Source: Planctomycetota bacterium
Lineage (GTDB): Bacteria > Planctomycetota > B15-G4
Assembly: GCA_038212275.1 (NCBI GenBank)
Contig: JBBQUR010000022.1
Coordinates: 1-64,000, forward strand
Direction of reading: 5' to 3'
DNA length: 64,000 nt
Position 1 is the first letter of the stretch. Every line of letters begins with the position of its first letter. Shown here in pieces: positions 11,465 through 49,624 of the stretch. The notes beneath the pieces were generated by a model. The model saw nothing but the letters and a program-made list of their open reading frames with translations, had not been told where the DNA came from and did not search any database. The position numbers were made by a program, and so were the translations under genes.

Positions 11465-11541
<77 letters not shown>

Positions 11542-28632: not shown

Positions 28633-28749
28633 CCCGGTGATGATACGAGACAAGGCGTGCCTGCGGCTCGGGCGCGGATTATCATCCCGCGGCGGATGCG
28701 GCGCCGCAGGGTTGCCGGACGTTGCGGTCTGTTGCGGGAGTGGATCGAC

Positions 28750-29949: not shown

Positions 29950-29953
29950 GCGG

Positions 29954-35824: not shown

Positions 35825-38619
35825 AGGACGGGGCGCGCGAGCAACTGCTGTTCGCCGGCGTGGCCGTGCTGGTGGGGCTGCTCACGTGGCAGCGCCTCGC
35901 CGACAGCTACACGGCGGCCGGCGTGCCGTCGCCGAAGCGCGTGGAGGCCGCCGTCGTGGAGCGGCCGGCGCTCGCGCACATCGGCGCGGTGGCGGAACTG
36001 CCGCCGGGCACGCGCGAGGAGTCCGTCTTCGCGCCGCCGCGCGAGCTGCTGCCGCTCGATCCGCTGCAGCTTCCGCCGCCGCCGTTGCCGCCGCTCTCCG
36101 TGCGCCGCCCGGCGGTGCAGCCGTCGATGGCCGGCCAGGCGGCGCGCGCCTATCGCGTGGCGCCCGATTCGCTGGGTTCGCTCGTGCTTTCGGAGCGGGT
36201 TCTGGATGCCTCCGAAGGGGACATCGGCGACGACGATCCGGACGCCGCCCCGGGTGGAGTCGGCGCGCCGAAGCAGGCTGCGACTGCTTCCGGCGGCACG
36301 AAGGACCCGTCCGGCAAGGGCGTCGGCGCCAAGCCTGCGCCGAACGGCAAGGCCGGCGTGGCCGACAAGACGGCCGGCGGCGCCAAGGCCGGCGGCGCCG
36401 CGCTCGACGAGACGCAGGAGAAGGCCGCCGAAGCGCGCTTCGACTGGATCGCGCGCGCCGACAGCAAGGGCCGTCTTTACGGCACGCTGCTGAACGAGGA
36501 CCCGATCGGACTCGCACAGCGCCCCGGCGAGGATCTCGTCCTGCAGCAGTTGTCCGAGAGCACGGGCCGCGCGCTCGGCGCGCCCTTCGTCGTGGCGCGC
36601 ACCGACGTGCTGGAGTTCGGACTCGCCGCGACGTTCGACAACGCGTATCTGCTGAAGTCGCGCGCACTGGGCGCGGGCGGTTCGGCGTCCGCCCGGCGTG
36701 CGCTGGCGCTGGAGATGCTGGCGGCCGAGGAGCTCGAGCCGCACGCGCTGGACTACGCCCTCAAGGAAGCGACGGCTGCCCTTGCCGCGGGTCCGAGCGA
36801 TCCCGCGAATCTGCACCTCATGGCCCATGTCTACCGTCGCGCCTTCGACCTGCAGGGCGAGCTGTCCGTGTGCGAGGAGGCGCTGCTGCGCGGAGCCGCC
36901 GACCCCGCGCTCGTGGCGGCGCACGTGCGCCTCGTGCGCTCGCTCGGACTGACCGAGCGTGCCTGGGAGCTGCTCGCAGCGGCGCGCACGCTGGGCCGCC
37001 AGACGGCGGAGGTCGGCGTGGCGCATGCGCTGCTGCTCTGCGACGACGGCCGCTGGCAGGACGCGGCCGTCGTGCTGGCCGAGGCCGAAAACCTGCCTTT
37101 CCTCGGGCCGTTCGAAGAACTTCAGAAGCGGGAGCTCGCGCTGCTCGGTGGCGAGGTGCAGCTGGCCCTCGGCAAGCCCGACGAGGCTCTGCGCGCCAGC
37201 GCCCGCGTGCTGCTCGACGAGCCGCGCGATCTGCGCGCGCTGCTGCTGGCCGGCGCGGCGCAGGCAGCGCAGGATGCGCTCGTGCCGGCAGCCGAGTCCT
37301 TCGAGGCCGCGCTTGTCGTCGAATCGCGTGACAGTCGTGCGCTGACCGACGCCGGCATCATCGCGTGGCGCCAGCGCGACGGCGACACCGCGCGGCGACG
37401 CTTCCTCGATGCGGTCTCCGCCGATCCCTGGCGCGCCGTGTCGCCGCTGCTGGCGCTCGGCTTTCTGTACGAGGATGCGAGCGACGCCAGCAAGGCAGCC
37501 GATGCCTACGCTGCGGCGCTGGACATCGATCCCGAGAATGCCGAGGCGCTCTACCGGCTCGGCCGCAGCCAGCGGCTGGACGGCGACCCCGAGGCCGCCA
37601 CGCAGACCCTGCGTCGCGCGCTGCGGCTGGCCGGCCCGGATCTGCTCGTGCTGCTCGAGCTGGGCCGCGCGGCGGTGGATGGCGGCCGTCACGACGAGGC
37701 GCTGCGCTACTTCCGCGAGGCCGAGCGGCTCGAGCCGGACAATGCCGAAGTGCAGTGGTCGCTGGGGCTGGCCGCGCTGGCGTCGGGCGACACGCTCGGC
37801 TGCCGGCAGCCGCTCGGCTTCGCGGCGGCGCACGGCAAGCCGGGAGCCCACGTCGCGCTGGGCGTCGCGAGCTACCGCCGCGGCGATGCGCAGGAGGCGC
37901 TCGATCACTTCGACGAGGCGCTGAAGGCCTACGCCGGCCACGCCGACGATCCGCAGGCGCGCTACGCCGCCGAGCAGTCGGTCGCGGTGCGCGACAACCT
38001 CGCCAAGCGCCAGTGGCTCGACCGCTTCGGACGCAGCTCGCTGCAGCGCGGCTGGGTCGAGCATGCCTGGGACGGCAGCCCGCGCATCGTGAGCGACGCC
38101 GGCCACGTCGCCATCACCGGGCGCATGGAGAAGCCGCGCGACGACGAGCGACCGGGCATCGGCCGCACGCTGGACGGGCGCGCCTTCTTCGGCGCCGCTG
38201 CGGAGCTGCTGCTCGCGGAAGGCGGCGACACGCGTGCCGGACTCTCGCTGACCTACAGCCAGGTCAAGGGCGCGCAGGGCCGGCTGCCCAAGGCGCAACT
38301 GGACATCTGGCTGGACACCGACGGCCAGGTGCGCCTCTCCGTCCTCGACAACTTCGACACGCGCGTGCTCGACGGCGTCGCGGTGACGGGGGCGGTCGCC
38401 ACGCCCGGCACGCCGATCGTGCTCGGCATCGAGCGGCTCGATGACGTGACCGGCCGATTCGCTTTCAGTGTGGACGGCCGGCGTGTCGGCGCGCCCGTGG
38501 AGGTCAAGAGCTTGCGCAGTTTCAAGAACCCGCTCGACCTGCAGGTCTGGGCCGAAGCCGCGCCCGGTCGCACCGTGTCCGCCTCCGTCGCACTCGTGCG
38601 CATCGTGCAGGCGCCGTGA
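35821..38619 (+). CDS. Membrane-anchored TPR protein with C-terminal beta-sandwich
   Basis: N-terminal TM, Pro-rich linker, multiple TPRs (ALDIDPENAEALYRLG, AERLEPDNAEVQWSLG), beta-rich C-terminus (FSVDG). Confidence 0.8.
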   Translation: MKDGAREQLLFAGVAVLVGLLTWQRLADSYTAAGVPSPKRVEAAVVERPALAHIGAVAELPPGTREESVFAPPRELLPLDPLQLPPPPLPPLSVRRPAVQPSMAGQAARAYRVAPDSLGSLVLSERVLDASEGDIGDDDPDAAPGGVGAPKQAATASGGTKDPSGKGVGAKPAPNGKAGVADKTAGGAKAGGAALDETQEKAAEARFDWIARADSKGRLYGTLLNEDPIGLAQRPGEDLVLQQLSESTGRALGAPFVVARTDVLEFGLAATFDNAYLLKSRALGAGGSASARRALALEMLAAEELEPHALDYALKEATAALAAGPSDPANLHLMAHVYRRAFDLQGELSVCEEALLRGAADPALVAAHVRLVRSLGLTERAWELLAAARTLGRQTAEVGVAHALLLCDDGRWQDAAVVLAEAENLPFLGPFEELQKRELALLGGEVQLALGKPDEALRASARVLLDEPRDLRALLLAGAAQAAQDALVPAAESFEAALVVESRDSRALTDAGIIAWRQRDGDTARRRFLDAVSADPWRAVSPLLALGFLYEDASDASKAADAYAAALDIDPENAEALYRLGRSQRLDGDPEAATQTLRRALRLAGPDLLVLLELGRAAVDGGRHDEALRYFREAERLEPDNAEVQWSLGLAALASGDTLGCRQPLGFAAAHGKPGAHVALGVASYRRGDAQEALDHFDEALKAYAGHADDPQARYAAEQSVAVRDNLAKRQWLDRFGRSSLQRGWVEHAWDGSPRIVSDAGHVAITGRMEKPRDDERPGIGRTLDGRAFFGAAAELLLAEGGDTRAGLSLTYSQVKGAQGRLPKAQLDIWLDTDGQVRLSVLDNFDTRVLDGVAVTGAVATPGTPIVLGIERLDDVTGRFAFSVDGRRVGAPVEVKSLRSFKNPLDLQVWAEAAPGRTVSASVALVRIVQAP

Positions 38620-39272
38620 GCTGCGCTGCCGCCACGCGCTGCGCGATGCCGGCCCGCCGCGCGGGCTTCACGCTCATCGAGATTCTCGTCGTCATCTCGA
38701 TCATCGGGCTGCTCATGGGCCTCGTGGCCGTGGCCGTCAGCCGTCACGGTCAGGCGGGACGCATCGCCGACTGCAAGGCGCGCATCGACACGCTCTCGCT
38801 CATGGTGGCCTCGTGGGCGGATCGCAACGGCGACGTGCCGCCCTCACGCCTCGCCCAGGTGGGCGTGACCGACGGCAACGGCGTCAACGAGGGCATCGAG
38901 GCTCTGGTCGTCGCGCTCAAGGGCAAGGCGTGGGCCGGGCGCCGCCCCGAGGAGCGCTGGCTGGCCAACGTGGACGGCGACTCCAGCAAGGGCCTCAAGC
39001 TGGCGGACGGCAGCAGCGCGCTGCTCGAGGTGGTCGATCCGTGGGAGAATCCCATGGTCTACATCTCCAGCGCGGACTACGGCGCCGAGTTCACCTACCG
39101 CTTCGAGACGGAGAGCGGCGCGGACGACCAGACGGTGCACAGCGCCATCGATCGCCTGACCGGCGCGCCGCATCAGTTCGATTCGTTCCAGATCCTGTCG
39201 GCGGGCCCGGACGGCGTGCTGGGCACGGAAGACGACCTTGCCAACTACGAGATCGACACGGGCGAGCACTGA
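38616..39272 (+). CDS. Prepilin, GspG-like major pseudopilin
   Basis: RRAG/FTLIEILVVISII class III signal; VDPWENP..Y and SAGPDGVLGTEDDL GspG-type motifs. Confidence 0.85.
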   Translation: MSCAAATRCAMPARRAGFTLIEILVVISIIGLLMGLVAVAVSRHGQAGRIADCKARIDTLSLMVASWADRNGDVPPSRLAQVGVTDGNGVNEGIEALVVALKGKAWAGRRPEERWLANVDGDSSKGLKLADGSSALLEVVDPWENPMVYISSADYGAEFTYRFETESGADDQTVHSAIDRLTGAPHQFDSFQILSAGPDGVLGTEDDLANYEIDTGEH

Positions 39273-40263
39273 GCGCCGGAGCGCCGGCTTCACGCTGCTC
39301 GAGCTGCTGGTGGTGATGGCCATCATCGGCACGCTCATGGGCATCGGGGTCGGAGCCTTCGCCAGCCTCGGGCGCGCGGACCGCCAGGCCACCGGCCAGG
39401 TGAAGGACGCCCTGCGCGCGGCGCGACTCTATGCGTTGCGCGCGAGCGCACCCGCCGCCGTCGTCGTCGATCCCGCCAACCGCGAGGTCTTCGCCACGGG
39501 GCTCACCGCGACGGGCAACTGGCACTTCGAGGACGACGCGGGCACCGGCTGGCCCGTGCCGGCCCGCTACGAACCCGGCACGCTGCTGCGCGAGGGCGTC
39601 ATCGGCTCGGCGCTCTCCATCGGCGGCGACGACGTGCTGCTGATCACCGACCTGCCCTCGCGTTTCGACTCGCCGCAGGGCTTCGGCGTGGACGTCTTCC
39701 TGCGCCCCGCCGCGGAGCCGCGCCCGATGACGCTGCTCGAACGCCCGGGCCGCTGGCAGCTGCGCCTCGACGACAACGACCGGCTCGAAGTGCGCCTCAT
39801 GCTCGCCGCGCACCCCGAGCCCGAGGAATTCCGCGTGTCCTTCGATGCGCAGCTGCCCGACACGCGCTTCACCGAGCTCTCCGTGCTCTTCGACGGGCGC
39901 GTCCTGCACGTGGCGCTTGACGGGAGGCGCGTCGGCGAGGACACGCTGCTCACGACGCCGCGCACGCTGGCCGCCGCGCCGGGCTCGGTGCTCCGCAGCG
40001 GCGACGGCGTGCTGCGCTTCCGCGGCGCGATCGATGAACTCTCCGTGGCCGCGGTGGTGGAGGGCGATCACCGCCCGCTGCCGGCGGACGTCACGCTGGA
40101 TGGCGCCCTGCGCGTGCTGCGCCTCGACGGCTTCGGGCACCTCGATCCGGCCTGGCATCGCACGCCGCAGCAGGTCTCGTTCGAGACCGGCGAACCGCCG
40201 CGCCGCACGGTCATCGAACTGGGCGTGCTGGGCACCGTGCGCAGCTGGACGGATGCGCCATGA
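39238..40263 (+). CDS. Prepilin, GspH/FimT-like, with inserted LamG-like domain
   Basis: AG/FTLLELLVVMAII; ALRAARLYA; WHFED...GVIGSAL...VLFDG...LDG...FRGAIDEL. The only in-frame start seen is TTG 39238. Confidence 0.8.
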   Translation: MPTTRSTRASTERRSAGFTLLELLVVMAIIGTLMGIGVGAFASLGRADRQATGQVKDALRAARLYALRASAPAAVVVDPANREVFATGLTATGNWHFEDDAGTGWPVPARYEPGTLLREGVIGSALSIGGDDVLLITDLPSRFDSPQGFGVDVFLRPAAEPRPMTLLERPGRWQLRLDDNDRLEVRLMLAAHPEPEEFRVSFDAQLPDTRFTELSVLFDGRVLHVALDGRRVGEDTLLTTPRTLAAAPGSVLRSGDGVLRFRGAIDELSVAAVVEGDHRPLPADVTLDGALRVLRLDGFGHLDPAWHRTPQQVSFETGEPPRRTVIELGVLGTVRSWTDAP

Positions 40264-43200
40264 GCGAGGCGCCGCACGGGGGGGGATCTCGCGGCGAGCG
40301 CGGCATCGCGCTGATCACGGTGATCCTCGCGCTGGTGGCGCTGGCGGTCATCGCCACGCCCTTTGCGCTCTCCATGCGCGGACTGCAGGCGCAGGCGCTC
40401 TACGGCTTCGAGCAGGAGGCTGCGCGCGCGGATTGCGATCTCGCTCTGGCCGCGGCGCGCGCTCATCTCGAGCAGACGCACCCGTTCCTCGACTCGGCCA
40501 CGCCCTGGAGCGACGACCGGAGCGAGCTGTCCCCGCCGGACCTCGCGCAGCGCTATCCGGAGCTGCTGTCGCGCGCGCCACTGGGCACGATCCGCTCCGT
40601 GAGCATCACCGACGAGCAGGGCAAAGTGGACCTCGCGACGGCCTCGCCCTACCTGCTCGGAAACATCCTCGGCGGGCGCACGCTGCTCACGGCGGACATC
40701 GACGAGCGCGCGACGTCGCTGCCCGTCGCCTCCACCGCGGGTTTCCCGGACACGGGCCTCGCGTGGCTGGGGCGCGAGCAGGTGGAGTATTCGCTGCGCG
40801 AACCGACGCTGCTGGGTGAAGTGCGGCGCGGCCTTCCCAGCGCGGCCATGCCGCTCTCGCCGGCGCTTCCCCACGCCACGGAAGACGACGTGCTCGACGG
40901 GCGGCTGCTGCTGCTGTGCCAGCACGGCTGGCGCATCCGACCCGGAGTCTTCGACGGCTTCCGCCGCGTCGACGGCCTCAAGGAGATTTCGCTCTACGGC
41001 GAGCTCGCCTACACGGCGGAGGATCTTGACCGCGCGCGCGCCTCGCTCACCGTCGCGGGCGGTCCGCTGCGCTTCGTCGCCAGCCAGCGCGTGCTGACGC
41101 TGGCCACCGGGCGAGAGGGCGGGCCCGAGCTGGTCGTGCCGGACGGACGGCGCTTCGGTGCCGGCACCGTGCTGCAACTGACCACCGGCGGTGGCGACAC
41201 GGAGTGGAATCTTGCGCTGGACTGCGTGGACTGGGGTGGCGGTGAGGGCTGGCACGTGGCCCTGCTGCTGCCGACGACGCTGCGGCACGACAGCGGCAGC
41301 ACGGTGGCCGCGCTCGCGCGACATCCCGTGAACGTGGCCTCGGCGAGCCCGCGCGTGCTGGGGGCGCTCTTCGCGGGCGTGGGCCGCTCGCCGACGACCG
41401 ACGTCATCAACGCACGCGAGGCCGCCGTGCTGTCCACCGCGCTGCTCGCGGTGGATGCCGGCACCGACAAGAATGACCTGTTCGATGCGCTGGCGCCGGC
41501 GATCCGCCGCGGAGAGTTCAGCCTGGACGATCTGGACACCGCGCTCGACGCGATCGGCGGGGCGCGCGGGCTGCGGACGGCTCCCGATGCGGAGGCGCTG
41601 GCCGGCCAGCTGGCCGGGCTGGTCACGCGCCGGTCGCCGCAGCGCGTGAGCACCGTCGCAGCGCGCGAGCTTGCCGAGCGCCTCACTGCCAGGCCGCCGC
41701 GCTCACATGAAGACTTCGCCCTGCGGCTCGACGAAGCCGTCGCGCAGGGTGTGCTGCGGGCACCGCAGCGCGATGCGCTGCTGCGCAACGCCCTCGACAG
41801 CAGCGACGCGGCACTGTCGGGCGGGACCGCGCCGTTCACCTACGCTTCGGGCGGCGTGTTCAGCGTGGACGCCGCCGTGAGCCGCAACTTTCCCAACGGG
41901 CGCGAACAGGTGCGCGCGCTGCGCTCGCAGATCCTGTCGGTGGCGCCGCAAGGCGAGAGCGCCCACACGCTGGTGAGCCAGCGCGATTTCGAGGAGGCCA
42001 GCGAACCCGGTGCGGGGCAGCACGGCTGGAGCAGCGCTCCCCGCCTGCTGCAGTCGGGGCCCGGACCGGCGGGCACGGCCGGCGGTGTCGACGCCTTTGC
42101 CGAGGCGCTGGCTCTCGGCGGAGCCGGCGTGTCGCGCGCCGGCACGCTGGTCGCCGGTCGGCCGGGTCCCGCGGAGGACGGCGCGTCGGCCGTGTCGCCG
42201 TCCACGCTGCGCAGCACGCTGCCCGACACGCTGCACTTCGACGAGGGGCTCGTCGGGCTCACGGGCGACTCGCCGAAGGGCTACTCGTTCGCGCAGGGGC
42301 CGGTGAGTCTTCCGCTGGCGGGGATCGTGCCGTCCCTCGTCAGCAAGCAGCCGCTGCTCGGGACCTTCGCGGTGGAGTTCTGGTGGCAGGTGCCCGACAC
42401 GAAGGCCGAGGTCATCCTCTTCGACGGTGGTGCCGGCGAGCTGGAAGACCGCATCCTCATCGCGCTCATCGGCGGCGAGCTGGTGCTCCGCGTCAGCGAC
42501 ACCAGCCTCCCCGACTTCGAGGCCGTCATGCCGAAGGGGCACGCGCCGCCCGCCGGCGAGATCCGCTATGCCTTCGATGACGGCCTGAAGCTGCTGCCCG
42601 ACACGCCCTACCACGTGCTCGCGTCCGTCGGCGGCGCACGCGACACGCAGCTTGCGCTCTTCGTCGACGGCCTGCCGCGCGGACACCGCTCGTTCACGAC
42701 CGCGCTCGCGGAGGACCTCGCGTCCGCCAACACGCAGCTCGAGGGCATCGCGGGGTACGGCGGCGAGGAGAAGGTGCGCGTGGAATCCACGGCGGGCTTC
42801 CCGGATCGCGGCGCCGTGCGCATCGGCACCGAAATCCTCGAGTACGTGGAAAAGACCGACGACAGCTTCGTGGTGCGGCGCGCCGGCGAGGTGGACAGCT
42901 TCGGCGGACGCGGCCGCCGCGGCACCGCTGCGCTGAAGCACGACGCCACCGAGCTCGTGGAGCTGGTCGGCTGGAGCCGCGCGCTCGGCAGCGAGCGGGC
43001 GAGTCAGGGCATCGCCAGTCTCAACGGCGACATGGACGTGTTCACGATCGCGGAGCTCGACCCGACGCGCCTCACCGACGAGATTTCCGTGAGCATCGTG
43101 CCGAACAGCGGCGGCGCACCGGTCACCGTCCCGCTGGGCACGGGGCTCGCCTACGGCAACAGCACCCTGCCGCTGCGCGGTGGCGGCGGCTCGGCGTTGA

Positions 43201-45443
43201 AGTCCGGCTCCTTCCAGTCGGGCGGCGGCTTCGCCATCCTGTTCTGCGATTACGGCCGCAGTGCGGTGGCGGGCCAGCGGATCCCCAACCCGAACGCGCC
43301 CAACAATCCGCAGGACAGCGTCACGCTGCCGGCGCAGACGACGGGCGGCTGGCTCGGCGGCGGCGAGATCGTGCGCTACTCCGGCTTCGACGGCAGCCAG
43401 CTCACCGGCGTGCAGCGCAACCAGGCGGGCATCCCGGTGGCCACGGGGGGGAAGGGCAGCAGCCTCGCGGGCACCGATCAGGTGGATTCGGTCTCCGGCG
43501 GCAGCACGGGCTGGGCCGAGCAGCGCGAATACGTCACCACCTTCGATGCGGCCATTCTCGGCGCCATCCAGGGGCTGCCCGAGAATCCCCGCGTCTTCGT
43601 GTTCCCGCTGTCGGTCGGCGTCACCGGCAGCAACCTGTTCGAGGACTTTCATCCGGCGCCCGACGGCCGCCTCAGTGCGCCGTCGGCCGTGGTGCAGGTG
43701 GGCATCGATTTCGAGGATGCGGACAACGCCACCGAGTGGATGCGCTGGAACACCGCCACCGACCTCGGCTTCGTGCGCGACGACAGCACGGCACTCGACA
43801 GCGGCCTGACCTACCTCATGGCCACCGGCCTGTGGGACCCGGGCAACGGCGCACCCGACGACGACACGGCCAAGGCGCTCAACGACGAGCTGGACTTCCG
43901 CGCCCAGGATGGCACGCCGATGAGCCATCACGGCAGCGGTGACCGCGTGCTGCCGACGATCGTGCTCGGCCGCTGGTTCTCCAGCGGCAACGACCCGCTC
44001 GTGGGCATTCCCGGCCGCCACGATTCCGTGACGCTGGTGAACACCGACGGCGACAAGGAATGGAACCGCATCAATCACGCCAGCAACCAGGATCCCGAAT
44101 GGGGCAGCAACTTCTGCCTCGTCGGCCTGCGCGAGGCGGTCTCCGGCGAGTTCCTCTACACCGACGAGACGGACGACTCGAACTACGCGCTGGCGGGCCT
44201 GCCGCTGCAGGGCCAGGTCAGCGCGGACAGCACGGCCTTCGACATCATCAAGTCGCTCAACGCCGACAGCCGGCTGTACACGCGCATGCTCTGCTCGCCC
44301 TCGGGGGAGCTGCCCACGGCGCCGATCGAGGCCTTTCACATGGGAGCCGACTGGAGCGGCCGTCCGAGCACGGGACTCGCCATCGTGGACGAGCTGCGCT
44401 TCCACGCGCCCGTCGGATCCGGCGAATACCTGCCCGACAACGGCCGCTGCCTGCTTGGCGAGGATCTCGAGCTGGAGGAAAACCGCCAGCTGCGCCTCGG
44501 CGTCGAGGCGCTGGCTTTCCCGTACGGTCAGCGGCGCGATCCCGTCCTCGGCGGCGGGGCGCTGGAGGTGCTCGGCTCGCTGGGACAGGCGGGCGGGCTG
44601 CTGCTCGTGGGCGAGGAGATCGTCGGCTACGCAGGGCTCGACGCCGTGGACTCCGGCAATGTCTTCCTCACGGCGCGCGGGCTCTACGGCACGCAGCGGG
44701 CCTTCCACCGGGCCGGCGAGGCCGTCACCGCGCTGCAGTTCTGGCCGGTGTCGCCGCTGGCGTCGTCGGTGACGGCCAGCTCGGGCCACCTGCCGCTCGC
44801 AGACAGTTCAGGCTTTCCCGCGGACGGCGGCCTGGTGTGGGTCGGCGACGAACTGATCGACTACACCTCGCGCGACGAGAGCGGTCTGAACCTTCCGGTG
44901 GCCACCACCGGCTCGCGCCTGCAGCTCTCGTCGGAAGGCCTGCTGCGCGGGCGCTTCGGAACCGTCGCCGCCGAGCATCCGGCCGGCACGCTGGTGCGCT
45001 GGATGCCGGCGCGCGTGGCCGACCGCGCGATGCTCGGCCACGACGTGCCGGAGTCCGAGAGCCTGCGGCTCACGGTGCGTGCGCCCGGAGCTTTCTTCAC
45101 CGACCTCATCGTGGACGCGTTGCTGCCGGACAGCAAGGTGTCGTTGCAACTGCGCGCCGTACTCGACGGCCGCGCCTCGGCGCACGACGACGCGACGAAG
45201 CACCCCGGGCTGCTCGCCCTCGCACCGGCCGACGGCCGCGTGCAGCCTTCCGGCCGCATGCAGTTCGCGCTCGGCCGACAGGCCGACGTGCTCGAGCTTT
45301 TCCTGTTCTCCGAGTGGGCGCGCGACGCCTTCGATGCGCGCAGCTACACGAGCAATGCCTGGAAGCTTGCGCCGGAAGTGCGCGCCCTCGTGGTGGGGCA
45401 CGCCCAGCCGACGCTCGTGCTCGAGCAGGAGGATCGTCGATGA
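40260..45443 (+). CDS. Giant GspK/PilX-like minor pilin (1727 aa) with LamG and phage-structural-like repeats
   Basis: ERG/IALITV (no Glu5); GspK motifs SITDEQGKVDL and PVNVASASPRVLGAL; FAVEFWW...LFVDG...IVDELRF; repeated STAGFP modules. Confidence 0.8.
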   Translation: MSEAPHGGGSRGERGIALITVILALVALAVIATPFALSMRGLQAQALYGFEQEAARADCDLALAAARAHLEQTHPFLDSATPWSDDRSELSPPDLAQRYPELLSRAPLGTIRSVSITDEQGKVDLATASPYLLGNILGGRTLLTADIDERATSLPVASTAGFPDTGLAWLGREQVEYSLREPTLLGEVRRGLPSAAMPLSPALPHATEDDVLDGRLLLLCQHGWRIRPGVFDGFRRVDGLKEISLYGELAYTAEDLDRARASLTVAGGPLRFVASQRVLTLATGREGGPELVVPDGRRFGAGTVLQLTTGGGDTEWNLALDCVDWGGGEGWHVALLLPTTLRHDSGSTVAALARHPVNVASASPRVLGALFAGVGRSPTTDVINAREAAVLSTALLAVDAGTDKNDLFDALAPAIRRGEFSLDDLDTALDAIGGARGLRTAPDAEALAGQLAGLVTRRSPQRVSTVAARELAERLTARPPRSHEDFALRLDEAVAQGVLRAPQRDALLRNALDSSDAALSGGTAPFTYASGGVFSVDAAVSRNFPNGREQVRALRSQILSVAPQGESAHTLVSQRDFEEASEPGAGQHGWSSAPRLLQSGPGPAGTAGGVDAFAEALALGGAGVSRAGTLVAGRPGPAEDGASAVSPSTLRSTLPDTLHFDEGLVGLTGDSPKGYSFAQGPVSLPLAGIVPSLVSKQPLLGTFAVEFWWQVPDTKAEVILFDGGAGELEDRILIALIGGELVLRVSDTSLPDFEAVMPKGHAPPAGEIRYAFDDGLKLLPDTPYHVLASVGGARDTQLALFVDGLPRGHRSFTTALAEDLASANTQLEGIAGYGGEEKVRVESTAGFPDRGAVRIGTEILEYVEKTDDSFVVRRAGEVDSFGGRGRRGTAALKHDATELVELVGWSRALGSERASQGIASLNGDMDVFTIAELDPTRLTDEISVSIVPNSGGAPVTVPLGTGLAYGNSTLPLRGGGGSALKSGSFQSGGGFAILFCDYGRSAVAGQRIPNPNAPNNPQDSVTLPAQTTGGWLGGGEIVRYSGFDGSQLTGVQRNQAGIPVATGGKGSSLAGTDQVDSVSGGSTGWAEQREYVTTFDAAILGAIQGLPENPRVFVFPLSVGVTGSNLFEDFHPAPDGRLSAPSAVVQVGIDFEDADNATEWMRWNTATDLGFVRDDSTALDSGLTYLMATGLWDPGNGAPDDDTAKALNDELDFRAQDGTPMSHHGSGDRVLPTIVLGRWFSSGNDPLVGIPGRHDSVTLVNTDGDKEWNRINHASNQDPEWGSNFCLVGLREAVSGEFLYTDETDDSNYALAGLPLQGQVSADSTAFDIIKSLNADSRLYTRMLCSPSGELPTAPIEAFHMGADWSGRPSTGLAIVDELRFHAPVGSGEYLPDNGRCLLGEDLELEENRQLRLGVEALAFPYGQRRDPVLGGGALEVLGSLGQAGGLLLVGEEIVGYAGLDAVDSGNVFLTARGLYGTQRAFHRAGEAVTALQFWPVSPLASSVTASSGHLPLADSSGFPADGGLVWVGDELIDYTSRDESGLNLPVATTGSRLQLSSEGLLRGRFGTVAAEHPAGTLVRWMPARVADRAMLGHDVPESESLRLTVRAPGAFFTDLIVDALLPDSKVSLQLRAVLDGRASAHDDATKHPGLLALAPADGRVQPSGRMQFALGRQADVLELFLFSEWARDAFDARSYTSNAWKLAPEVRALVVGHAQPTLVLEQEDRR

Positions 45444-46609
45444 GACGCCCGCGCGGCTTCACGCTCATCGAGGTGCTCGCGGCCACCGCGCTTTTCGCGC
45501 TGCTCGGCACGATGTTGTTCACCGTGGTGCGCGGCGCGATGGACCTGTGGACGATCGGCGAGCGCAATCGCGAGCTCAACGACCGCGCCAGTGCCGCGCT
45601 CGACCTGATGGCGGAGGACCTGCGCACGACGTGGCCCGGTCTGCCCGGCGCGACCGAGCAGGACAGCCGCTTCCTGGTGGCGCAACGCACCGACGATCGT
45701 CCGCCGGGCGCGACGGGGAGCTCGTCGCTGCTGGCCTTCGCGCGGCTCTGCCACGAACAGCGGGCGCTGGACTGGTTGCGCCGTGCGGGTGACACGCCGG
45801 GGGCGCAGGGCACCGCCAGCCTCGCGTCGCCGTCGGATCCCGCGCAGCTGCAGCCCACCGGCGGACTCGCCGAGGCGCTGTTCATGCTCGCGAGAGCACC
45901 CGGCGACGTGCTGCCCTCGCTCATCCGCCGCGTGCGCACGCCGCTCGGCGGCACGGGCTCGCTGCTCGACGAGGACAGCTGGGTGACGCCCGCCGGCGCA
46001 CCGTCGGGCGGAGGTCTGCGCGACCAGCTGCAGGCGGCCGAAGCGCGCGGAGCCGGCGTGTGGCGCGACGGAGTGGTCCTCGCCGACCGGGTGCTGTGGT
46101 TCGGCGTGCTCTGCTGGGGCGCCGACACGACCTGCTGGGATCGACTGCCGACCGACCCGGCCGATGCCGTGCCGGCGCTGCCCGTGTGGGACAGCACGCG
46201 CGGACTCGCTCCGGCCGGCACGGAGGGATTTCCGCTGGCGGTGGGCCCGGCCTCGCTGCTCGACGGCAGCGACGACGTCTTCCCGCAGCGCGTGCGCCTG
46301 ACGCTCGTGCTCGAACGCGACGAGGGCAATGCCACCACGGGCGTACTGTCCGATGAGTTGAGCCTGACGGGCCGCACGCTGACCCTGGCCTCCGCCAGAA
46401 TTCTGGAGGACGAGCAGGCTCCCGACTTCGTGCTCGTGGACGCCGAATGGCTGGGCGTGACGGCCGCCGACGGGCGGAACCTGACCGTCACGCGTGGCGC
46501 GCGGGGCACGCGGCCGGCGCAGCATTCCAGCGGGACGAAGCTGCGCGTCGGCCGGCGCTTCGATCGCGTGGTGGACCTGCCCTGCGGGCGGGAGAACTGG
46601 AACCCGTGA
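45440..46609 (+). CDS. Prepilin, GspJ/PilW-like
   Basis: RG/FTLIEVLAA; ALDLMAEDLR; VLADRV; FPQRVRLTL. Confidence 0.8.
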   Translation: MRRPRGFTLIEVLAATALFALLGTMLFTVVRGAMDLWTIGERNRELNDRASAALDLMAEDLRTTWPGLPGATEQDSRFLVAQRTDDRPPGATGSSSLLAFARLCHEQRALDWLRRAGDTPGAQGTASLASPSDPAQLQPTGGLAEALFMLARAPGDVLPSLIRRVRTPLGGTGSLLDEDSWVTPAGAPSGGGLRDQLQAAEARGAGVWRDGVVLADRVLWFGVLCWGADTTCWDRLPTDPADAVPALPVWDSTRGLAPAGTEGFPLAVGPASLLDGSDDVFPQRVRLTLVLERDEGNATTGVLSDELSLTGRTLTLASARILEDEQAPDFVLVDAEWLGVTAADGRNLTVTRGARGTRPAQHSSGTKLRVGRRFDRVVDLPCGRENWNP

Positions 46610-47043
46610 ACCAGCGCGGCTTCACGCTCATCGAGGTGCTCGTGGCCATGCTGGTCTTTGTGACCGGCGTGGCGGGGTTGCTCGCGCTCATCGTCACGGC
46701 GCTGGCGCTGCACCGCGACGGCCTCAACCTGGCGCGGGCCACACGGGACTTCGACGCACTGCGGGCGACCATCGTCGCGGAGGTGGCGGCGGGCGGGCAC
46801 TTCGACGCGGACCGGCACGCCTTTGTCGATGTGGCCGTCGCGGCCCTGCCGGACGGCACCACCTACGCGGTGCACTTCATCCCGGGCGACGGGGTGGAGC
46901 CCGACCGGGCCGAACTCCGCTTCGGGGCCAACGAGGCCGAACTCCGCACCGCGCGGCCGGTGGTCTTCGCGCTGCCGACCGGCCCGCCCCTGGCGTCCAC
47001 GGTGGCGCGCTGGCGGGAACGCCAGGCTCGCCCGGAACACTGA
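46606..47043 (+). CDS. Prepilin, GspI/PilV-like
   Basis: GTG start overlapping the previous stop; QRG/FTLIEVLVAMLVFVTGVAGLL. Confidence 0.8.
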   Translation: MNQRGFTLIEVLVAMLVFVTGVAGLLALIVTALALHRDGLNLARATRDFDALRATIVAEVAAGGHFDADRHAFVDVAVAALPDGTTYAVHFIPGDGVEPDRAELRFGANEAELRTARPVVFALPTGPPLASTVARWRERQARPEH

Positions 47044-47069
47044 TCCCGATCACTAGAATGCGACGACCC

Positions 47070-48581
47070 ATGCACACACCCGGCTCATGCCCGACTCGAT
47101 TCCTCCGCGCCGCCGTCGCCGCTGCCGTCGCGCTGCTGCTGCTGCTGCCGTCGCTGTCCGCGGAGATCATCCGTCTGCGCGACGGCACGCTGGTGCACGG
47201 CGAGATCACGGAGTTCGACGAGGGCACGGGCTTCACGGTCGTGCGCGCCGACAACGGTGGGCAGGTGCACCTGCGCTGGGAGCACCTGCCGGCCGCCGAG
47301 GTCAAGCGCCTGAAGGAGGCGCGCGGCTTCACCGGCGAGGATCCGCAACCCTGGCTCGTGGACGTCGTGCAGCTCGTGATGAAGAACGGCACGACCGAGG
47401 CCGGCGTGCTGGTGGACAACGGCAGGCCCGACGTCTACTCGCTGCGGCGGCGCAACGGAGTCGACACCTTCCCTCGGCAGTACGTGCACACGCTGGAGAC
47501 GAGTCGCGTGGACGGGCTCTCCGTGTACTCGCCCGACGACCTGTACGGCGTCATCGTCGCGGAGCTGGGCACGCCGAACACAGCCGCGCAGCACTTCGCG
47601 CTGGCCGTCGCGTGCGAAGGCGCCGGGCTCTACAACCAGGCGCTCGAACAGTATGCGGCCGTGCAGGCCCTCGACCCGACGCTGAAGACCGACCTCATCG
47701 CGGCGCGACTTCCGCGCCTGGCGATCAAGCTCGAGGACAAGGCCGAGACCGCGTTCCTGGACGACATCCGCAACAAGCTGTACCGCCGCCTCTTCGACGA
47801 CGCGCTCGCGATGGTCAAGCAGTTCCGCACGCAATACCCGGCCAGCCGGCAGCTCGGCGAGCTGGCCGCGCTGGAAGGCGATGTCGCACGCCAGCGCAAG
47901 GCCTTCTACTCGGCCAGGATCGTCTCGGACTACTTCTCGTTTCTCGGCAAGGCGCTCAACGAGATCGCCCGGCGCGACGGCATGACGCTGGGCGCGGCGG
48001 TGCAGCTCGTCGACGAAACCGTGCACAAGGACGTCGTGAAGCGCATCTCCGCGTCGTACTCCACCTCGGAGGAGCAGACCGAGCAGCTGTGGAAGGCGCG
48101 GCACGGCGGCAGCGTGAGGACCAGCTCCTACGGCACCGGCACCTTCGTGCTGGGCGAGCAGAAGGCGCTCGACTTCTTCGATCACTCGAACGCCGCGGCC
48201 GACAAGGCGCCCGACGAGGAGAAGGCGCCCGACGAGAACGCGAGCCTCGAGCAGCGCATCGAGGACGTGCTGAAGCAGCGCGCGGCCCAGGCCGATTCGC
48301 GCGCCAAGTCCAAGTCCTCCCAGCGCGATCTCTCGGAGGGCCTCACGCCCGACGGCTGGTGGGCCTCGGTCTCCATCGACGACAAGGTCGCCTGGCTCTC
48401 CGGCTACTTCGCCGAGTTCTCCGGCCAGGTGAACGTGGTGCGCGCCAAGCCCAGGCCGTGCCGCACCTGCGACGCGCTCGGCACGGTCGACCAGCTGAAC
48501 GAGGAGAAGGCCCAGATCGAGGCGGTGACCTGCCCGACCTGCAAGGGCCTCAAGATCGAGCGCCTCGTCAACTACCGCTGA
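47070..48581 (+). CDS. Hypothetical secreted protein with TPR-like helices and C-terminal CxxC...CxxC
   Basis: Signal peptide (LLLPSLSA-E); two L-x-(D/N)G-T-x-x-G modules; CRTCDALG...CPTCKG. Confidence 0.7.
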   Translation: MHTPGSCPTRFLRAAVAAAVALLLLLPSLSAEIIRLRDGTLVHGEITEFDEGTGFTVVRADNGGQVHLRWEHLPAAEVKRLKEARGFTGEDPQPWLVDVVQLVMKNGTTEAGVLVDNGRPDVYSLRRRNGVDTFPRQYVHTLETSRVDGLSVYSPDDLYGVIVAELGTPNTAAQHFALAVACEGAGLYNQALEQYAAVQALDPTLKTDLIAARLPRLAIKLEDKAETAFLDDIRNKLYRRLFDDALAMVKQFRTQYPASRQLGELAALEGDVARQRKAFYSARIVSDYFSFLGKALNEIARRDGMTLGAAVQLVDETVHKDVVKRISASYSTSEEQTEQLWKARHGGSVRTSSYGTGTFVLGEQKALDFFDHSNAAADKAPDEEKAPDENASLEQRIEDVLKQRAAQADSRAKSKSSQRDLSEGLTPDGWWASVSIDDKVAWLSGYFAEFSGQVNVVRAKPRPCRTCDALGTVDQLNEEKAQIEAVTCPTCKGLKIERLVNYR

Positions 48582-48601: not shown

Positions 48602-49624
48602 ATGTCTTTCGCAAGCTGCCGGGCTGTCTGTGTCCGGCTGGTGTTCGCCCTGTGCTGCGCGCGGGCCGTGTCGGCGCAGGATGCGCCCGTGCCCTCGCCG
48701 GACGAAGCGGCTGCGTCCGCGGCGCCGGCCGATACGGCGTCGCCCGGCACGGCGCCGGCAGACAGCCTCGTCACGGCGGACGGCCGCATCGGCGTGGCGT
48801 CGCTGGAGTCGCTCGCCCGCAACGACGATGGCCTCGTGGCGCGAGTCGGTGACATCGAGCTGCGGCGCAGCGATGCCTTCCGCATCCTCGACCTGGCGGC
48901 GCCGGCGCGTTCGGCCGAGGTCATCCGCCAGATGGTGCTGACCACCGGCGCCCAGCTCGAGGCCGCCCGCGAGGGCATCGACGTGCCGGCCGGGCAGCTG
49001 GCTGCCGACATCGAGTCCGCCATCTCGGCCCAGAAGGCGAGTTTCGCGCTTGAGGTGGACGAGCACATGCCGCTGGAGGAGTACCTGCGCCTGCGCCACG
49101 GCCTGAGTCCCGAGGAATACCGCGCCGAGGTCCGCCGCATGGTGCTGGCCTCGCTGCTCATGGAGCGTGCCGCGCGCCTGGATCAACTGCGCTCGGACCA
49201 CGACGAACTCGAGCTCATCGTGGTGGAGGACGAGGTGCTCGCGCGCGACCTGGCCTCGCAGCTGGAGGGCGGTGCGTCGTTCTCGGTGCTGGCGAAGAAG
49301 CATTCGGTGCATCCGTCGGCCTCGTCGGGCGGGGCCTTGCCGCCCGTCCCGTCCAGCGGAGAGATCCCGCTGCTCGACGGCAGGGCGGGGCTGGCGCCCG
49401 GGGAGCGCCTGGGGCCCGTCTCCATCGTCGTGAAGGGCAAGACGCTGTGGCGGCTGCTGCGACTCGTGGAACGGGTGTCGGCGACGGCCGCACCGTGGTC
49501 CGAACTGCGGGACAGGATCGAGCGGAGCCTCGCCGAGCGGCCGCTCACTCCCGACGAGCTGGCTCTCTTTGAAGCGCACATCGTCGACCGCTATGGTGTG
49601 ACCCGTTTCACGAGGCCGCCATGA
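48602..49624 (+). CDS. Parvulin (PpiC)-type peptidyl-prolyl isomerase / PrsA-SurA-like foldase
   Basis: Signal peptide; LIVVEDE.LA..L..QLEGGASFSVLAKKHSVHPSASSGGAL. Confidence 0.75.
   Translation: MSFASCRAVCVRLVFALCCARAVSAQDAPVPSPDEAAASAAPADTASPGTAPADSLVTADGRIGVASLESLARNDDGLVARVGDIELRRSDAFRILDLAAPARSAEVIRQMVLTTGAQLEAAREGIDVPAGQLAADIESAISAQKASFALEVDEHMPLEEYLRLRHGLSPEEYRAEVRRMVLASLLMERAARLDQLRSDHDELELIVVEDEVLARDLASQLEGGASFSVLAKKHSVHPSASSGGALPPVPSSGEIPLLDGRAGLAPGERLGPVSIVVKGKTLWRLLRLVERVSATAAPWSELRDRIERSLAERPLTPDELALFEAHIVDRYGVTRFTRPP

Follow-up and report, generated by a model that had tools for sequence, protein, structure and literature searches.

What is a protein of 1727 residues doing in a pseudopilin operon, where the cap subunit GspK is normally small? 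The question is raised by a stretch of 64,000 nucleotides from a Planctomycetota bacterium (the window), in which one open ORF, 40260..45443, here called K, carries a lectin-like domain and repeated barrels. All features described below lie on the forward strand. The first-pass annotation, made from the letters of the window, read K as a GspK-like prepilin standing among other pseudopilin genes, with a repeated module of the kind seen in tailed-phage structural proteins, and proposed an undescribed filament with a tip built from such domains, which might serve attachment, prey contact or substrate capture.

The operon and the GspK likeness of K

The first recognisable filament-machinery gene in the operon (33417..35060) encodes a PilM-like assembly protein of 547 aa with a PilM/FtsA-type ATPase-fold domain (PF11104 PilM_2, E 1.6e-17, residues 45-326) and a C-terminal extension. 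It is followed by a 256-aa ORF (35054..35824), which gave no match at E<=0.05 in a Pfam scan and which, to judge by its position, may fill the usual PilN/PilO-type slot, and by a 932-aa TPR-repeat protein (35821..38619; TPR_2 E 4.4e-19, and other TPR families) conserved 5' of the pseudopilin genes; a distant genome, G397, has a 954-aa ORF in its place. Then come a G-like (major) pseudopilin of 218 aa (38616..39272; N_methyl E 9.6e-8), an H-like minor pseudopilin of 341 aa (39238..40263; N_methyl E 9.3e-8), K itself, a J-like minor pseudopilin of 389 aa (45440..46609; N_methyl PF07963 E 6.9e-7, residues 1-27) and an I/PilV-like one of 145 aa (46606..47043; N_methyl E 1e-7). The H-like protein carries a LamG/ConA-like lectin domain that scores over the cut-off (PF13385 Laminin_G_3, E 3.8e-10, 40.5 bits). 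The matches to subunit models all stay under their cut-offs: TIGR01710 GspG (E 1.4e-10) and TIGR01711 GspJ (E 0.0012), both in the N-terminal part only, TIGR01708 GspH (E 2.7e-6) and TIGR02523 PilV (E 1.2e-6, for the I-like protein).

Two partners lie downstream. X (47058..48581, 507 aa) has a signal-peptide-like start, weak TPR likeness, weak Pfam hints only and a C-terminal CxxC...CxxC; in the distant genomes G397, G119 and G256 the gene that follows I aligns with almost the whole of X at 24-26% identity (E 3e-42 to 6e-34). Y (48602..49624, 340 aa) is weakly SurA/PpiC-like (SurA_N_3 E 0.0038, Rotamase E 0.007, both under their cut-offs) and resembles its counterparts in G256 (E 3e-18) and G119 (E 2e-10). 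The conserved operon consists of PilM-like protein, TPR protein, G, H with its LamG domain, K, J, I, X and Y, and holds no ATPase, platform protein or secretin. A T2SSE ATPase is found at 55-1317 of the window. Genome-wide there are one A24 prepilin peptidase, 10 T2SSF domain matches in 5 ORFs and 8 secretin matches, none of the 8 on the contig of K.

K is GspK-like by several lines that are weak but concordant, namely its N-terminus, two motifs, a match to XcpX, its place in the operon and a predicted complex. Residues 1-72 (40260..40475) hold a GspK-type N-terminal hydrophobic segment, GERGIALITVILALVALAVIATPF, without Glu5, and a long alpha-1 helix, which spans residues 11-72 in the AF2 model. 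The GspK model NF037980 aligns with K 13-123 at E 0.0038 and 16.8 bits against a cut-off of 130, and every match of K to the curated GspK models is far under threshold. Neither PF03934 nor PF07963 matches the K of the window at E<=0.1; PF03934 T2SSK matches 6 of 27 members of the K family (E<=0.01; best 1.1e-4). The motif 'ITDEQGKVDL' (40605..40634) is aligned by profile search with RIEDPSGRFNLN of XcpX (5vtm_X), a piece of alignment which alone is not significant. The second motif, 'HPVNVASAS' (41322..41348), is a helix-hairpin-helix motif of the GspK/ComEA type; it was aligned with 'APLNVNTAS' of the same XcpX chain, its consensus in the family is PVNVNTAS, and the family alignments keep the GspK motifs across the phylum. 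Against 177,635 PDB sequences the N-terminal profile of the family had XcpX/GspK 5vtm_X as its top match (E 0.064) and the full-length profile had it as its sole match (E 0.2), both alignments running through 'PVNVNTAS'.

In structure comparison with VIA, on whose own scale Z values of 6-9 are middling, the N-terminal model of K aligned with 5vtm_X over 144 residues (Z 6.6, rmsd 5.5 A, 21% identity; rank 38 among its matches), and the helix-hairpin-helix part with ComEA at Z 7.4. The models cover residues 1-420 and 1330-1727 of the 1727, and within them the pilin beta-sheet was not identified. When K(1-420) was modelled with J and I the ipSAE was 0.64, compared to 0.25 for the best of three controls; among solved complexes 116 of 157 attain the mark used, among mismatched pairs 2 of 215. 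The runs share at least 74% of contacts, with a partner pLDDT of at least 73, and the contacts run mainly along the alpha-1 helices, so that the prediction is a bundle of the three helices of K, J and I, such as the solved GspI-J-K tip complexes show. It should be noted that because such solved complexes exist the result is to be read as likeness, possibly as memory of the model. With the motifs, the XcpX match and the neighbouring G-, H-, J- and I-like genes, the GspK-like assignment of the first-pass annotation is supported. A GspK scaffold has about 350 residues; in K about 1,300 residues have been added onto it.

The repeated barrel and the other added domains

The module is about 65 aa long, is predicted to fold as a small six-stranded beta-barrel, and has a near-invariant Glu...Arg-Gly...His signature (Glu 97%, Arg 93% and His 86% over 961 module matches). 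About five copies had been claimed for K. Four are statistically clear: M1 (K 149-216, 40704..40907; profile domain E 6e-12), which sits inside the helix-hairpin-helix region, M2 (K 835-902, 42762..42965; E 5e-21), M4 (K 1435-1490, 44562..44729; E 3e-11), which lacks the 'GFP' start, and M5 (K 1506-1582, 44775..45005; E 4e-21). The remaining one, M3, is split by an insert of about 155 aa into M3a (K 1034-1054, 43359..43421) and M3b (K 1209-1232, 43884..43955). Its halves match the corresponding profile halves in the correct order, without significance; in the alignment of 27 sequences they read 'GGxExIRY' and 'FRGQxGTxxxxHxxGxxV', with Y1040, R1214, T1219 and H1224 invariant. We regard the third copy as real but split. 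A further copy, M6, had been claimed in the next gene and was recovered there at J 313-369 (46376..46546). The refined coordinates all fall within the ranges first proposed.

The mutual likeness of the copies was tested by local alignment of the originally proposed segments with 300 shuffles each. No shuffle reached the score of M1-M2 (z 10.0), M1-M5 (z 9.8), M2-M5 (z 10.3), M4-M5 (z 7.6) or M4-M6 (z 6.1), and 2 of 300 reached that of M5-M6 (z 3.3). The pairs M1-M4 (z 0.5), M2-M4 (z 1.4), M1-M6 (z -0.9) and M2-M6 (z 1.5) were not significant by this test, nor was any pair with the 'degenerate' third copy (z <=2.2). A profile built from 108 segments (M1, M2, M4 and M5 of 27 family members, the K of the window included and J excluded) was run against the 38,109 six-frame ORFs of at least 60 aa in the genome. 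It found only K and the J copy on which it had not been trained (E 5e-5), the next-best ORF having E 0.17.

Phages have barrels of the same domain family in their tail-tip/hub (J-type) proteins, in tail fibres and in baseplate/virion giants. What links K to phages is a set of sequence profiles whose E-values for K are modest, and a barrel of this fold (EF-Tu domain II / E1 FCCH-like) is common. Against PHROG, K matched phrog_4406 virion structural protein (2.3e-9), phrog_2885 baseplate wedge (9.5e-7) and phrog_1101 tail protein (1.2e-6); the M2 segment alone matched the first two (E 4e-5 and 4.7e-4), and the J copy matched phrog_1101 at E 4.3e-7. M5 matched PF23666 at E 5.7e-4 and 20.6 bits, under the cut-off of 27. 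Among PDB sequences (E<=10) the module profile retrieved only the phage Chi tail-tip minor tail protein 8vjh_A (0.037) and 8rk3_o (0.28), the 'tip attachment protein J' of JBD30. Both chains also rank among the top structural matches to each modelled copy, with 75-78 residues superposed at rmsd 1.7-2.2 A: the M1 barrel gave 9in6_M Z 9.3, 8vjh_A Z 9.1 (rmsd 1.7, 76 aligned), 8jov_1 Z 8.9 and 8rk3_o Z 8.6, and the M5 barrel 9in6_M Z 7.8, 8vjh_A Z 7.5, 8jov_1 Z 7.3 and 8rk3_o Z 6.9. One and the same model had 53 matches in BFVD at E<=0.001 (best 9e-9) versus 1 in the PDB. By tblastn 14 phage records were found, 13 of them Synechococcus phages with the annotation structural protein or baseplate wedge; the best match, M5 against cyanophage structural proteins, had E 2e-3. 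In JBD30 a domain of matching description is reported to brace the structure next to fibronectin-like domains. The claim that the module occurs in tailed-phage structural proteins is thus borne out, in PHROG tail, tail-fibre, baseplate and virion families as well as in the Chi and JBD30 chains. Since the profile also matches giant cellular proteins, Planctomycetota surface proteins that are filled with the domain, in which Planctomycetota-type leaders go together with FG-GAP, cadherin or PA14 domains and no pilin part is present, 'phage-type' means common to phages and does not imply derivation from them.

The additions to K are five related barrels (one split), a barrel without signature, a LamG-like domain and a C-terminal beta-sandwich. 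The signature-less barrel (K 269-356, 41064..41327) has the same general fold; the module profile gives no match there, and VIA matches it to 7w1c_A (Z 9.9), lambda gpJ 8iyk_J residues 490-567 (Z 8.2) and EF-Tu domain 2 (Z ~8). A LamG/ConA-like region with 'FAVEFWW...LFVDGLPRG' was placed approximately, by reading the alignment, at about K 703-808 (42366..42683); PF13385 has no match to the K of the window at E<=0.01; of the 27 family members, 10 do match it (best E 2e-6). The AF2 model of about K 1586-1718 (45015..45413) predicts a sandwich of a common, generic fold, with discoidin/DS-like, GOLD, collagen-binding and carbohydrate-binding-module sandwiches at Z 6-7.6 and none prominent. The phage-type reading holds for the barrels as domains common to phages, but they are not exclusive to phages and the head has LamG-like, barrel and sandwich parts as well.

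Conservation in the phylum

Of the 401 Planctomycetota genomes sampled, 188 carry the K family, whose architecture is very uniform: among 108 full-length K-like proteins 104 have exactly four significant module copies, 3 have five and 1 has three. The system is conserved across the phylum and is no one-off. K is followed by J and I in 8 of 8 genomes of the same family, the copy in the J gene is kept in 8 of 8 relatives scanned with the profile, and the order G-H-K-J-I-X recurs in all three distant genomes with pilin neighbours (G397, G119 and G256). Every source annotation name seen for a K-family protein was 'hypothetical protein', and our literature search found no study or description of the family, in agreement with the original naming of it as a candidate for an undescribed system.

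The role of K

We consider it likely that K is the cap minor subunit of a Planctomycetota type IV filament machine (T2SS pseudopilus / type IV pilus class) with a large binding head. Counted against a tip subunit are a head of about 190 kDa, which would have to pass a secretin or sit outside it, the lack of ATPase, platform protein and secretin genes in the operon, and a distant genome, G008, whose K-like gene (1332 aa, 6 module matches) had no pilin-like neighbours by a motif-based check of 20 kb.

K could also cap a T2SS pseudopilus which works as a short periplasmic piston and stays in the cell, with the head inside the periplasm or the secretin vestibule as a substrate-recognition platform or plug for secreted proteins, for example glycoside hydrolases, and no external adhesin. 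This we find rather unlikely. The nearest curated models, taken for all five subunits, are T2SS models (GspG, H, J, K), the best PDB match of K is the T2SS protein XcpX, the conserved partners are a candidate periplasmic chaperone (Y) and a secreted protein (X), and a head of this mass would pass the pore of a secretin with difficulty. However, a PilM-like gene opens the operon, and PilM is typical of the type IVa pilus and related machines rather than of the GspL/GspM pair; the I-like subunit matches PilV best; and the subunit matches all rest on the common N-terminal helix and so cannot separate T2SS from type IV pili. With lectin-like domains in both H and K, and with domains common to phage adsorption organelles, outward-facing binding is the better fit.

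It is improbable that K is no filament subunit at all, its GspK likeness being an evolutionary remnant in a bitopic envelope protein anchored by the N-terminal helix, whose large beta-rich ectodomain acts alone, as scaffold or binding protein of the periplasm or the cell surface. The sub-threshold scores with all curated pilin and GspK models, G008 and the cellular giants with a module would fit this, but synteny with G, H, J and I is strict in all 11 checked genomes having pilin neighbours, J carries the same module, the helix bundle with J and I is predicted well above its controls, and the GspK motifs are kept phylum-wide. That the region is the remnant of a prophage or phage-tail-like particle, with K as tail fibre or tail-tip protein, is suggested by the matches to phage families and is effectively refuted: K lies in a conserved pseudopilin operon and belongs to a widespread family, the GC level over the region is even (0.71-0.74), the scanned ORFs of the window yielded no further phage-type gene, the module profile finds nothing beyond K and J in the 4.65-Mb genome, and a Pfam scan found no hub, tail-collar or fibre-chaperone domain in K.

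For the cap subunit with a binding head we envisage that the single A24 prepilin peptidase would process the subunits and that a K-J-I(-H) complex would prime assembly of the G-like fibre through one GspE/F/secretin set encoded elsewhere. K would then most likely remain at the fibre tip. Its barrels would be rigid beads, acting as spacers or scaffold, from which the lectin-like domains stand out in a large binding head, and the ligand would most likely be a glycan or another cell-surface polymer. K would be a modular minor pilin, and modular minor pilins are already a known kind. The whole tip complex would be enlarged, because with J comes a sixth signature barrel and with H a second LamG domain.

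The giant GspK-like protein and its operon

The genes between 33417 and 49624 on the + strand are tightly packed or overlapping, and the composition is level across this region of a window with about 72% G+C. They begin with a PilM-like protein (33417-35060; PF11104, E 1.6e-17), an ORF of 256 amino acids whose family was not recognised (35054-35824; no Pfam match) and a TPR protein of 932 amino acids (35821-38619; TPR families). Then follow a G-like pseudopilin (38616-39272; prepilin motif, GspG model), an H-like pseudopilin with a LamG domain (39238-40263; PF13385 at 40.5 bits, above the cut-off), the protein K of 1727 amino acids (40260-45443), a J-like pilin of 389 amino acids (45440-46609; prepilin motif, GspJ model) and an I/PilV-like pilin of 145 amino acids (46606-47043; prepilin motif, PilV model). 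N-methylation motifs are clear in all four small pilins, G, H, J and I (E 1e-7 to 7e-7); K has none, PF07963 being unmatched at E<=0.1. Two secreted-looking proteins, X (507 aa, 47058-48581) and Y (340 aa, 48602-49624), are conserved operon partners: among three distant Planctomycetota genomes X has a matched counterpart in all three and Y in two. X starts like a signal peptide, matches TPR weakly and has a C-terminal CxxC...CxxC similar to the DnaJ zinc finger; Y is weakly SurA/PpiC-like. Both may serve the giant subunit in assembly or as chaperones. At the other end the operon may begin with a 631-aa ORF of no known family (31525-33420), the stop of which overlaps the PilM-like gene at its start.

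K is GspK-like by several lines of evidence, each of them weak and all in agreement. The N-terminus carries a prepilin-like hydrophobic segment, 'GERG-IALITVILALVALAVIATPF', which is without Glu at +5, aligns to the start of NF037980 and is conserved in 28 sequences. NF037980 (GspK) matches K 13-123 with 16.8 bits (E 0.0038) against a cut-off of 130 bits; PF03934 (T2SSK) does not match K itself at E<=0.1 and matches 6 of 27 relatives at E<=0.01, the best at 1.1e-4. When 177,635 PDB sequences were searched with a profile of the N-terminal part of the family the best match was XcpX/GspK 5vtm_X (E 0.064), which was also the sole PDB match of the full-length family profile (E 0.2). The XcpX alignments pass through 'PVNVNTAS' and, non-significantly, through 'veDeqGkvdLn'.

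Two parts of the protein were modelled with AlphaFold2 from alignments of 28-29 phylum-wide sequences, K 1-420 (mean pLDDT 81) and K 1330-1727 (mean pLDDT 80). The N-terminal model has an alpha-1 helix of 62 residues and a helix-hairpin-helix unit (ComEA, Z 7.4) into which the first copy of a repeated module is inserted, and it also holds a second barrel (K 269-356) and further helices. Its superposition with XcpX 5vtm_X covers 144 residues (Z 6.6, rmsd 5.5, 21% identity) and stands at rank 38. The pilin beta-sheet of K was not located in either of the two models. The modelled C-terminus is a beta-sandwich, which was considered as the missing sheet; this is not claimed, the matches being to generic sandwiches.

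Of the K-J-I-H complex which the first-pass annotation had proposed for modelling, the part made up of J, I and K(1-420) was predicted, with an own alignment for each. Its ipSAE is 0.64, where the best of three controls has 0.25, and it passes the mark of the tool, a mark reached by 116 of 157 solved complexes and by 2 of 215 mismatched pairs; the contact agreement is at least 74% and the partner pLDDT at least 73. Most of the predicted contacts lie along the three alpha-1 helices, and a few are globular. It should be noted that GspI-J-K complexes have already been solved, so the prediction shows likeness, which may derive from those structures, and does not demonstrate binding. The N-terminus, the two motifs, the XcpX match, the neighbouring G, H, J and I genes and the predicted bundle concur with the original suggestion that K is a GspK/PilX-like prepilin.

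GspK/XcpX/EpsK (NF037980, PF03934; 5VTM, 6UTU chain X, 3CI0) is the apical minor pseudopilin of the type II secretion system. Common to K and these proteins is the hydrophobic N-terminal segment without Glu5, and K and GspK have in common the helix-hairpin-helix motifs 'DxxGKxNL' and 'PxNVNTAS', adjoining I- and J-like genes, a predicted helix bundle with I and J and, putatively, a non-pilin domain inserted into the pilin scaffold. K differs from GspK in that it scores far under the curated cut-offs, is about five times larger (1727 aa against 273 aa in the solved XcpX chain) and has beta-barrel repeats, a LamG-like domain and a beta-sandwich. Its partners also differ from those of GspK, J having a barrel and H a LamG domain.

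The repeated barrel

The first-pass annotation had seen about five copies of a module in K, the third of them degenerate, and one more in J. These six segments, of about 65 residues per module, were cut out as defined there and all pairs were locally aligned and compared with 300 shuffles. Copies 1, 2 and 5 are similar to each other with z about 10, and copy 4 resembles copy 5 (z 7.6) and also the J copy (z 6.1); between copy 5 and the J copy z is 3.3, a score reached by 2 of the 300 shuffles. By the same test copies 1 and 2 have no direct match to copy 4 or the J copy, and the third copy has no significant partner. In a self-BLAST of K and J, off-diagonal K-K pairs were absent and the J-K pairs were weak.

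A module profile was built from copies 1, 2, 4 and 5 of 27 full-length homologues (108 segments) and run on all 38,109 six-frame ORFs of the 4.65-Mb genome. K and J were its sole finds, the next ORF having E 0.17, and the J copy, which is absent from the training set, was found with E 5e-5. The third copy turns out to be a split module: K 1034-1054 and K 1209-1232 match the corresponding halves of the profile in the correct order, though without significance. These halves, 'GGxExIRY' and 'FRGQxGTxxxxHxxGxxV', are among the best conserved stretches of the family alignment, in which Y1040, R1214, T1219 and H1224 are invariant. Both the repetition within K, by the shuffle scores and the family profile, and the copy in J are thus borne out. 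Every copy but the third aligns significantly with at least one other; the third fails as a pairwise match and stands as a split module.

When 30 copies from this genome and five relatives are aligned one Glu and one His are invariant, and over the 961 profile hits in all collected proteins the signature is kept to 97% at the Glu, 93% at the Arg and 86% at the His. The second barrel of the N-terminal model, encoded at 41064-41327 (K 269-356), has the same general fold as the modules and matches lambda gpJ 490-567, a phage K1 capsule lyase and domain 2 of EF-Tu. The module profile gives no hit to it; it may be a very diverged extra copy.

By sequence the module is best called a distant relative of PF23666, the Rcc01698-like C-terminal domain, whose name comes from the 'megatron', a baseplate protein in the gene transfer agent of Rhodobacter. 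This wording is chosen because K is under the gathering cut-off (20.6 bits against 27), because the family and its modules match only in part (8 of 27 family members at E<=0.01; 7 of 30 single modules at E<=1, the best at 0.0018, with no other Pfam family recurring) and because two pilin-like, module-bearing proteins, P0147 (31.5 bits) and P0167 (32.4 bits), exceed the cut-off. The single modules of the window match nothing in Pfam save PF23666 for copy 5.

The first-pass annotation had placed the module among those of tailed-phage structural proteins, and the comparisons with viral sequences and structures agree with this. Among the PHROGs K matches the virion structural protein phrog_4406 (2.3e-9), the baseplate wedge phrog_2885 (9.5e-7) and the tail protein phrog_1101 (1.2e-6), and the J copy matches phrog_1101 (4.3e-7), always at module positions. 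A tblastn search of 50,697 phage genomes with copies 4 and 5 gave 14 records, 13 of which are Synechococcus phages with the match annotated as structural protein or baseplate wedge (best E 2e-3, 33% identity over 83 residues). The module profile has two matches at E<=10 among all PDB sequences, and both are tail-tip proteins: the phage Chi minor tail protein 8vjh_A (E 0.037) and the 'tip attachment protein J' of JBD30, 8rk3_o (E 0.28).

The modelled copies are small beta-barrels, and the same two chains are among the top VIA-align matches of both. Copy 1 superposes on 8vjh_A with Z 9.1 (rmsd 1.7 A over 76 residues) and on 8rk3_o with Z 8.6 (rmsd 2.1 over 75), copy 5 with Z 7.5 and 6.9; phage VP1 chain 9in6_M, phage GP4 8jov_1 and phage Mystique 9n71_B also rank near the top. 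The tool classes such Z values as middling, and a fold of the EF-Tu domain II type is common; the superpositions therefore support the sequence evidence and are insufficient alone. Foldseek against the PDB told less than VIA-align and gave few matches at E<=0.001, all with low TM and reflecting the barrels: a Kp9 phage tail complex for the C-terminal model and, for the N-terminal one, two entries that contain IF2. Among predicted viral structures 53 match the C-terminal model at E<=0.001, the best at 9e-9; those with a name include proteins of the tail fibre, fibre, structural and S74-chaperone kinds.

The module is not confined to phages. Among 1.84 billion cluster representatives the profile finds 4,328 proteins at E<=0.001 and 864 at 1e-10. 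The best 150 of the 4,328 include 137 new ones, of which 75 have a K-type N-terminus by our own criterion and 62 do not; among the 62 are K-like fragments, pilin-like proteins of other kinds and, with as many as 25 barrel copies, giants of 3,600-8,000 residues. Nineteen of these non-K proteins were picked by hand for many copies or odd lengths, so that they are not a random sample; 17 of the 19 match PHROG tail or head-and-packaging families at E<=1e-5, and Pfam finds the phage tail-collar domain in two, the fibre chaperone S74 in one and, in a further two, FG-GAP, cadherin, PA14 or C-type lectin domains. Of the giants P0057-P0068 and P0102, which are 3,800-8,000 residues long, some have phage tail-collar and tailspike matches and others are cellular-looking.

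Several giants begin with an arginine-rich leader ending in 'LEPLE(D/A)R..L', and such leaders are typical of secreted proteins of the Planctomycetota; the giants which combine it with FG-GAP or cadherin domains look cellular. The barrel is common to phage adsorption organelles and cellular surface proteins, and being present in both types it is not a phage-only domain. Of the 'phage-type' label first given to the module, the presence in phage structural proteins stands, and the label is to be read as shared with phages. P0147 (836 aa) and P0167 (880 aa) are pilin-like with a classical 'TLVE(L/V)LV' N-terminus and several barrel copies, which shows that grafting of the barrel onto pilins is not confined to the K family. 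The Glu...Arg-Gly...His barrel is a domain definition which reaches thousands of protein clusters at E<=0.001 and for which Pfam coverage is marginal.

Distribution of the family

A word-indexed search found 55 homologues of K, mostly of 1,700-1,800 residues with a few shorter or partial. Wherever the source gives a name it is 'hypothetical protein', and the organisms given are 'Planctomycetota bacterium' MAGs, 'Planctomycetes bacterium Poly30' and one 'Pseudohongiellaceae' MAG fragment. A second search with the N-terminal profile gave 34 proteins, all unnamed or 'hypothetical'. At E<=1e-10 K is present in at least 188 of 401 sampled Planctomycetota genomes, at least 115 of the 244 of high quality and at least 9 of the 10 in the window's own family, all of these counts being lower bounds, and the open frames of the matches across the phylum are mostly of 1,300-2,200 aa. 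Few large unannotated proteins in the sampled genomes are as widely conserved as the K family.

The survey of related genomes shows that the modules are kept. Among 108 full-length K-like proteins 104 have four significant module hits, three have five and one has three, and J carries the module in all 8 relatives scanned with the profile. K is followed by J and I in 8 of 8 genomes of the same family, and in the distant Planctomycetota genomes G397, G119 and G256 the order G-H-K-J-I-X recurs with at least four modules in K and one in J. A Planctomycetota genome of 36% GC and 9.3 Mb (G008) has a K-like protein of 1,332 aa with six module hits (locus L055, G008:C1:4634000-4653999, 9424-13422, - strand), and there are no pilin-like neighbours within the 20 kb examined.

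In open PMC and bioRxiv no paper on giant GspK-like pseudopilins in Planctomycetota was found, in line with the first-pass annotation, which had named this its best candidate for an undescribed system. K is a giant, phylum-wide and, by this search, unstudied protein, probably a modular tip pilin of the GspK type.

Related systems and a possible role

Modular type IV pilins include PilB (vWA) and PilC (ConA-like lectin) of S. sanguinis, CofB and ComZ, and were surveyed by Raynaud et al. (2021), who selected by the N-terminal motif IPR012902; in that survey the largest extreme is 860 residues with 12 repeats, LamG/ConA-like lectin modules (PF13385) are a common graft, and GspK is cited as a pilin with an inserted domain (PMC8179133). 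K falls under this concept. As in the pilins of that survey it has grafted modules on a pilin-type carrier, with exposure expected at the tip; it differs in being twice the 860-residue extreme, in being a K-type and not a classical pilin, and in using a domain common to phage tails. The signature of IPR012902/PF07963 with an extra domain is not found in K, and having no PF07963 match it would probably be missed by a screen based on IPR012902. H has both PF07963 and PF13385 above the cut-off, as in the modular-pilin definition, and J has PF07963 with a barrel module which gives no gathering-level Pfam match.

A functional analogy may be drawn with PilY1/PilC of type IVa pili, a large adhesin (>1000 aa) displayed at the fibre tip on a priming complex of minor pilins, PilVWX (PMC8179133, PMC7541494). 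PilY1 is not a pilin but a protein of its own, with a beta-propeller at the C-terminus, whereas the head of K is fused to a K-type pilin; in function K is like a PilX-type pilin joined to an adhesin of the PilY1 type, minus the propeller, for which Pfam has no match in K at E<=0.1.

With J-type tail-tip and hub proteins and fibres of phages (PF23666; RcGTA g15; JBD30 gp53 8rk3_o; Chi 8vjh_A) K has in common the same six-stranded barrel, and by profile and predicted fold the signature E...RG..T....H..G..V is common to the modules and the Rcc01698_C-like barrels. K is without the hub, tube-like or fibre domains of the tail-tip proteins, and none of the Pfam hub, tail-collar or fibre families is found in it at E<=0.1. 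The C-terminal region of the RcGTA megatron is called a fibre-binding domain (PMC7296036), and no such partner is known for K. The phage-hub barrel reported to brace neighbouring domains is probably the domain matched by the module.

The cassette proteins A-D of Verru_Chthon (TIGR02596-TIGR02600) are pseudopilin-like proteins of the Verrucomicrobiota, and their cassette presumably has a very large member. G and H of the window have weak N-terminal matches to cassette proteins D and C, and K matches no Verru_Chthon model at E<=0.1. Both sets are pseudopilin genes of the PVC superphylum.

The function of a type IV filament is decided by the minor pilins at its tip. In the reading we prefer, and consider probable, K is the cap subunit of such a filament. 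The sequence features, the repeats, the gene order and the conservation are established directly, and the barrel fold and the K-J-I helix bundle are predictions. An A24 prepilin peptidase would process the subunits, a K-J-I(-H) complex would prime a G-like fibre on a PilM-containing platform, and K would stay at the fibre tip. The head, consisting of the LamG-like domain, five signature barrels, one plain barrel and the beta-sandwich, with the barrel of J and the LamG domain of H, would be a ligand-binding device in which the barrels are rigid spacers and the lectin-like domains the binding elements; the spacer role is suggested by analogy with phage hub proteins, where a similar barrel braces neighbouring domains. 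The ligand is probably a glycan, and any particular ligand is proposed with much less confidence than the place at the tip.

The genome has a single prepilin peptidase, five ORFs of the GspF/PilC type and eight matches to secretins, all of which lie on contigs other than that of the window. As the main rival reading, K could be part of a strictly periplasmic T2SS pseudopilus with its head handling secretion substrates. This appears unlikely to us, though the data are compatible with either reading. A reading of the region as a prophage was rejected: among the scanned ORFs of the window no other phage-type gene was found, the GC content is level, the module profile hits nothing else in the genome and the operon is conserved across the phylum. 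A T2SSE-type (GspE/PilB/PilT) ATPase gene lies at the start of the window (55-1317), 30 kb upstream of the pseudopilin operon, and the gene after it encodes a protein of 1,197 aa that bears a bacterial TSP3 repeat.

If K is such a tip subunit, it shows that the cap can grow five-fold in the K type, and J and H with it, by means of a barrel which phages employ in their adsorption organelles. In the Planctomycetota dextran decorates pilus-like fibres which come from crateriform structures (Boedeker et al., 2017, PMC5394234), and the mechanisms and players of macromolecule uptake are still called unknown in a 2025 review (PMC12673574). That the G-H-K-J-I-X-Y operon encodes these long-sought fibres, which bind high-molecular-weight polysaccharide, is a long shot which we would rate as improbable. 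If it were true, the K head, the J barrel and the lectin domain of H would be a phage-tail-like adsorption device on a filament, by which whole polymers, or other cells, would be captured for uptake into the enlarged periplasm. K is in any case a concrete gene with which the idea of fibre-mediated uptake can be tested.

Other genes of the window include two Wzy_C (O-antigen ligase-like) membrane proteins at 11621-13639 and 21524-23203, both on the - strand, one of which is fused to TPR repeats. A putative 1,689-aa ORF (25240-30309, - strand) has GH2-like domains in its C-terminal part and triplet-repeat tracts of Ser/Ala/Gly/Thr; a putative ORF of 430 aa (28657-29949, + strand) overlaps it and has an equally high third-position GC.
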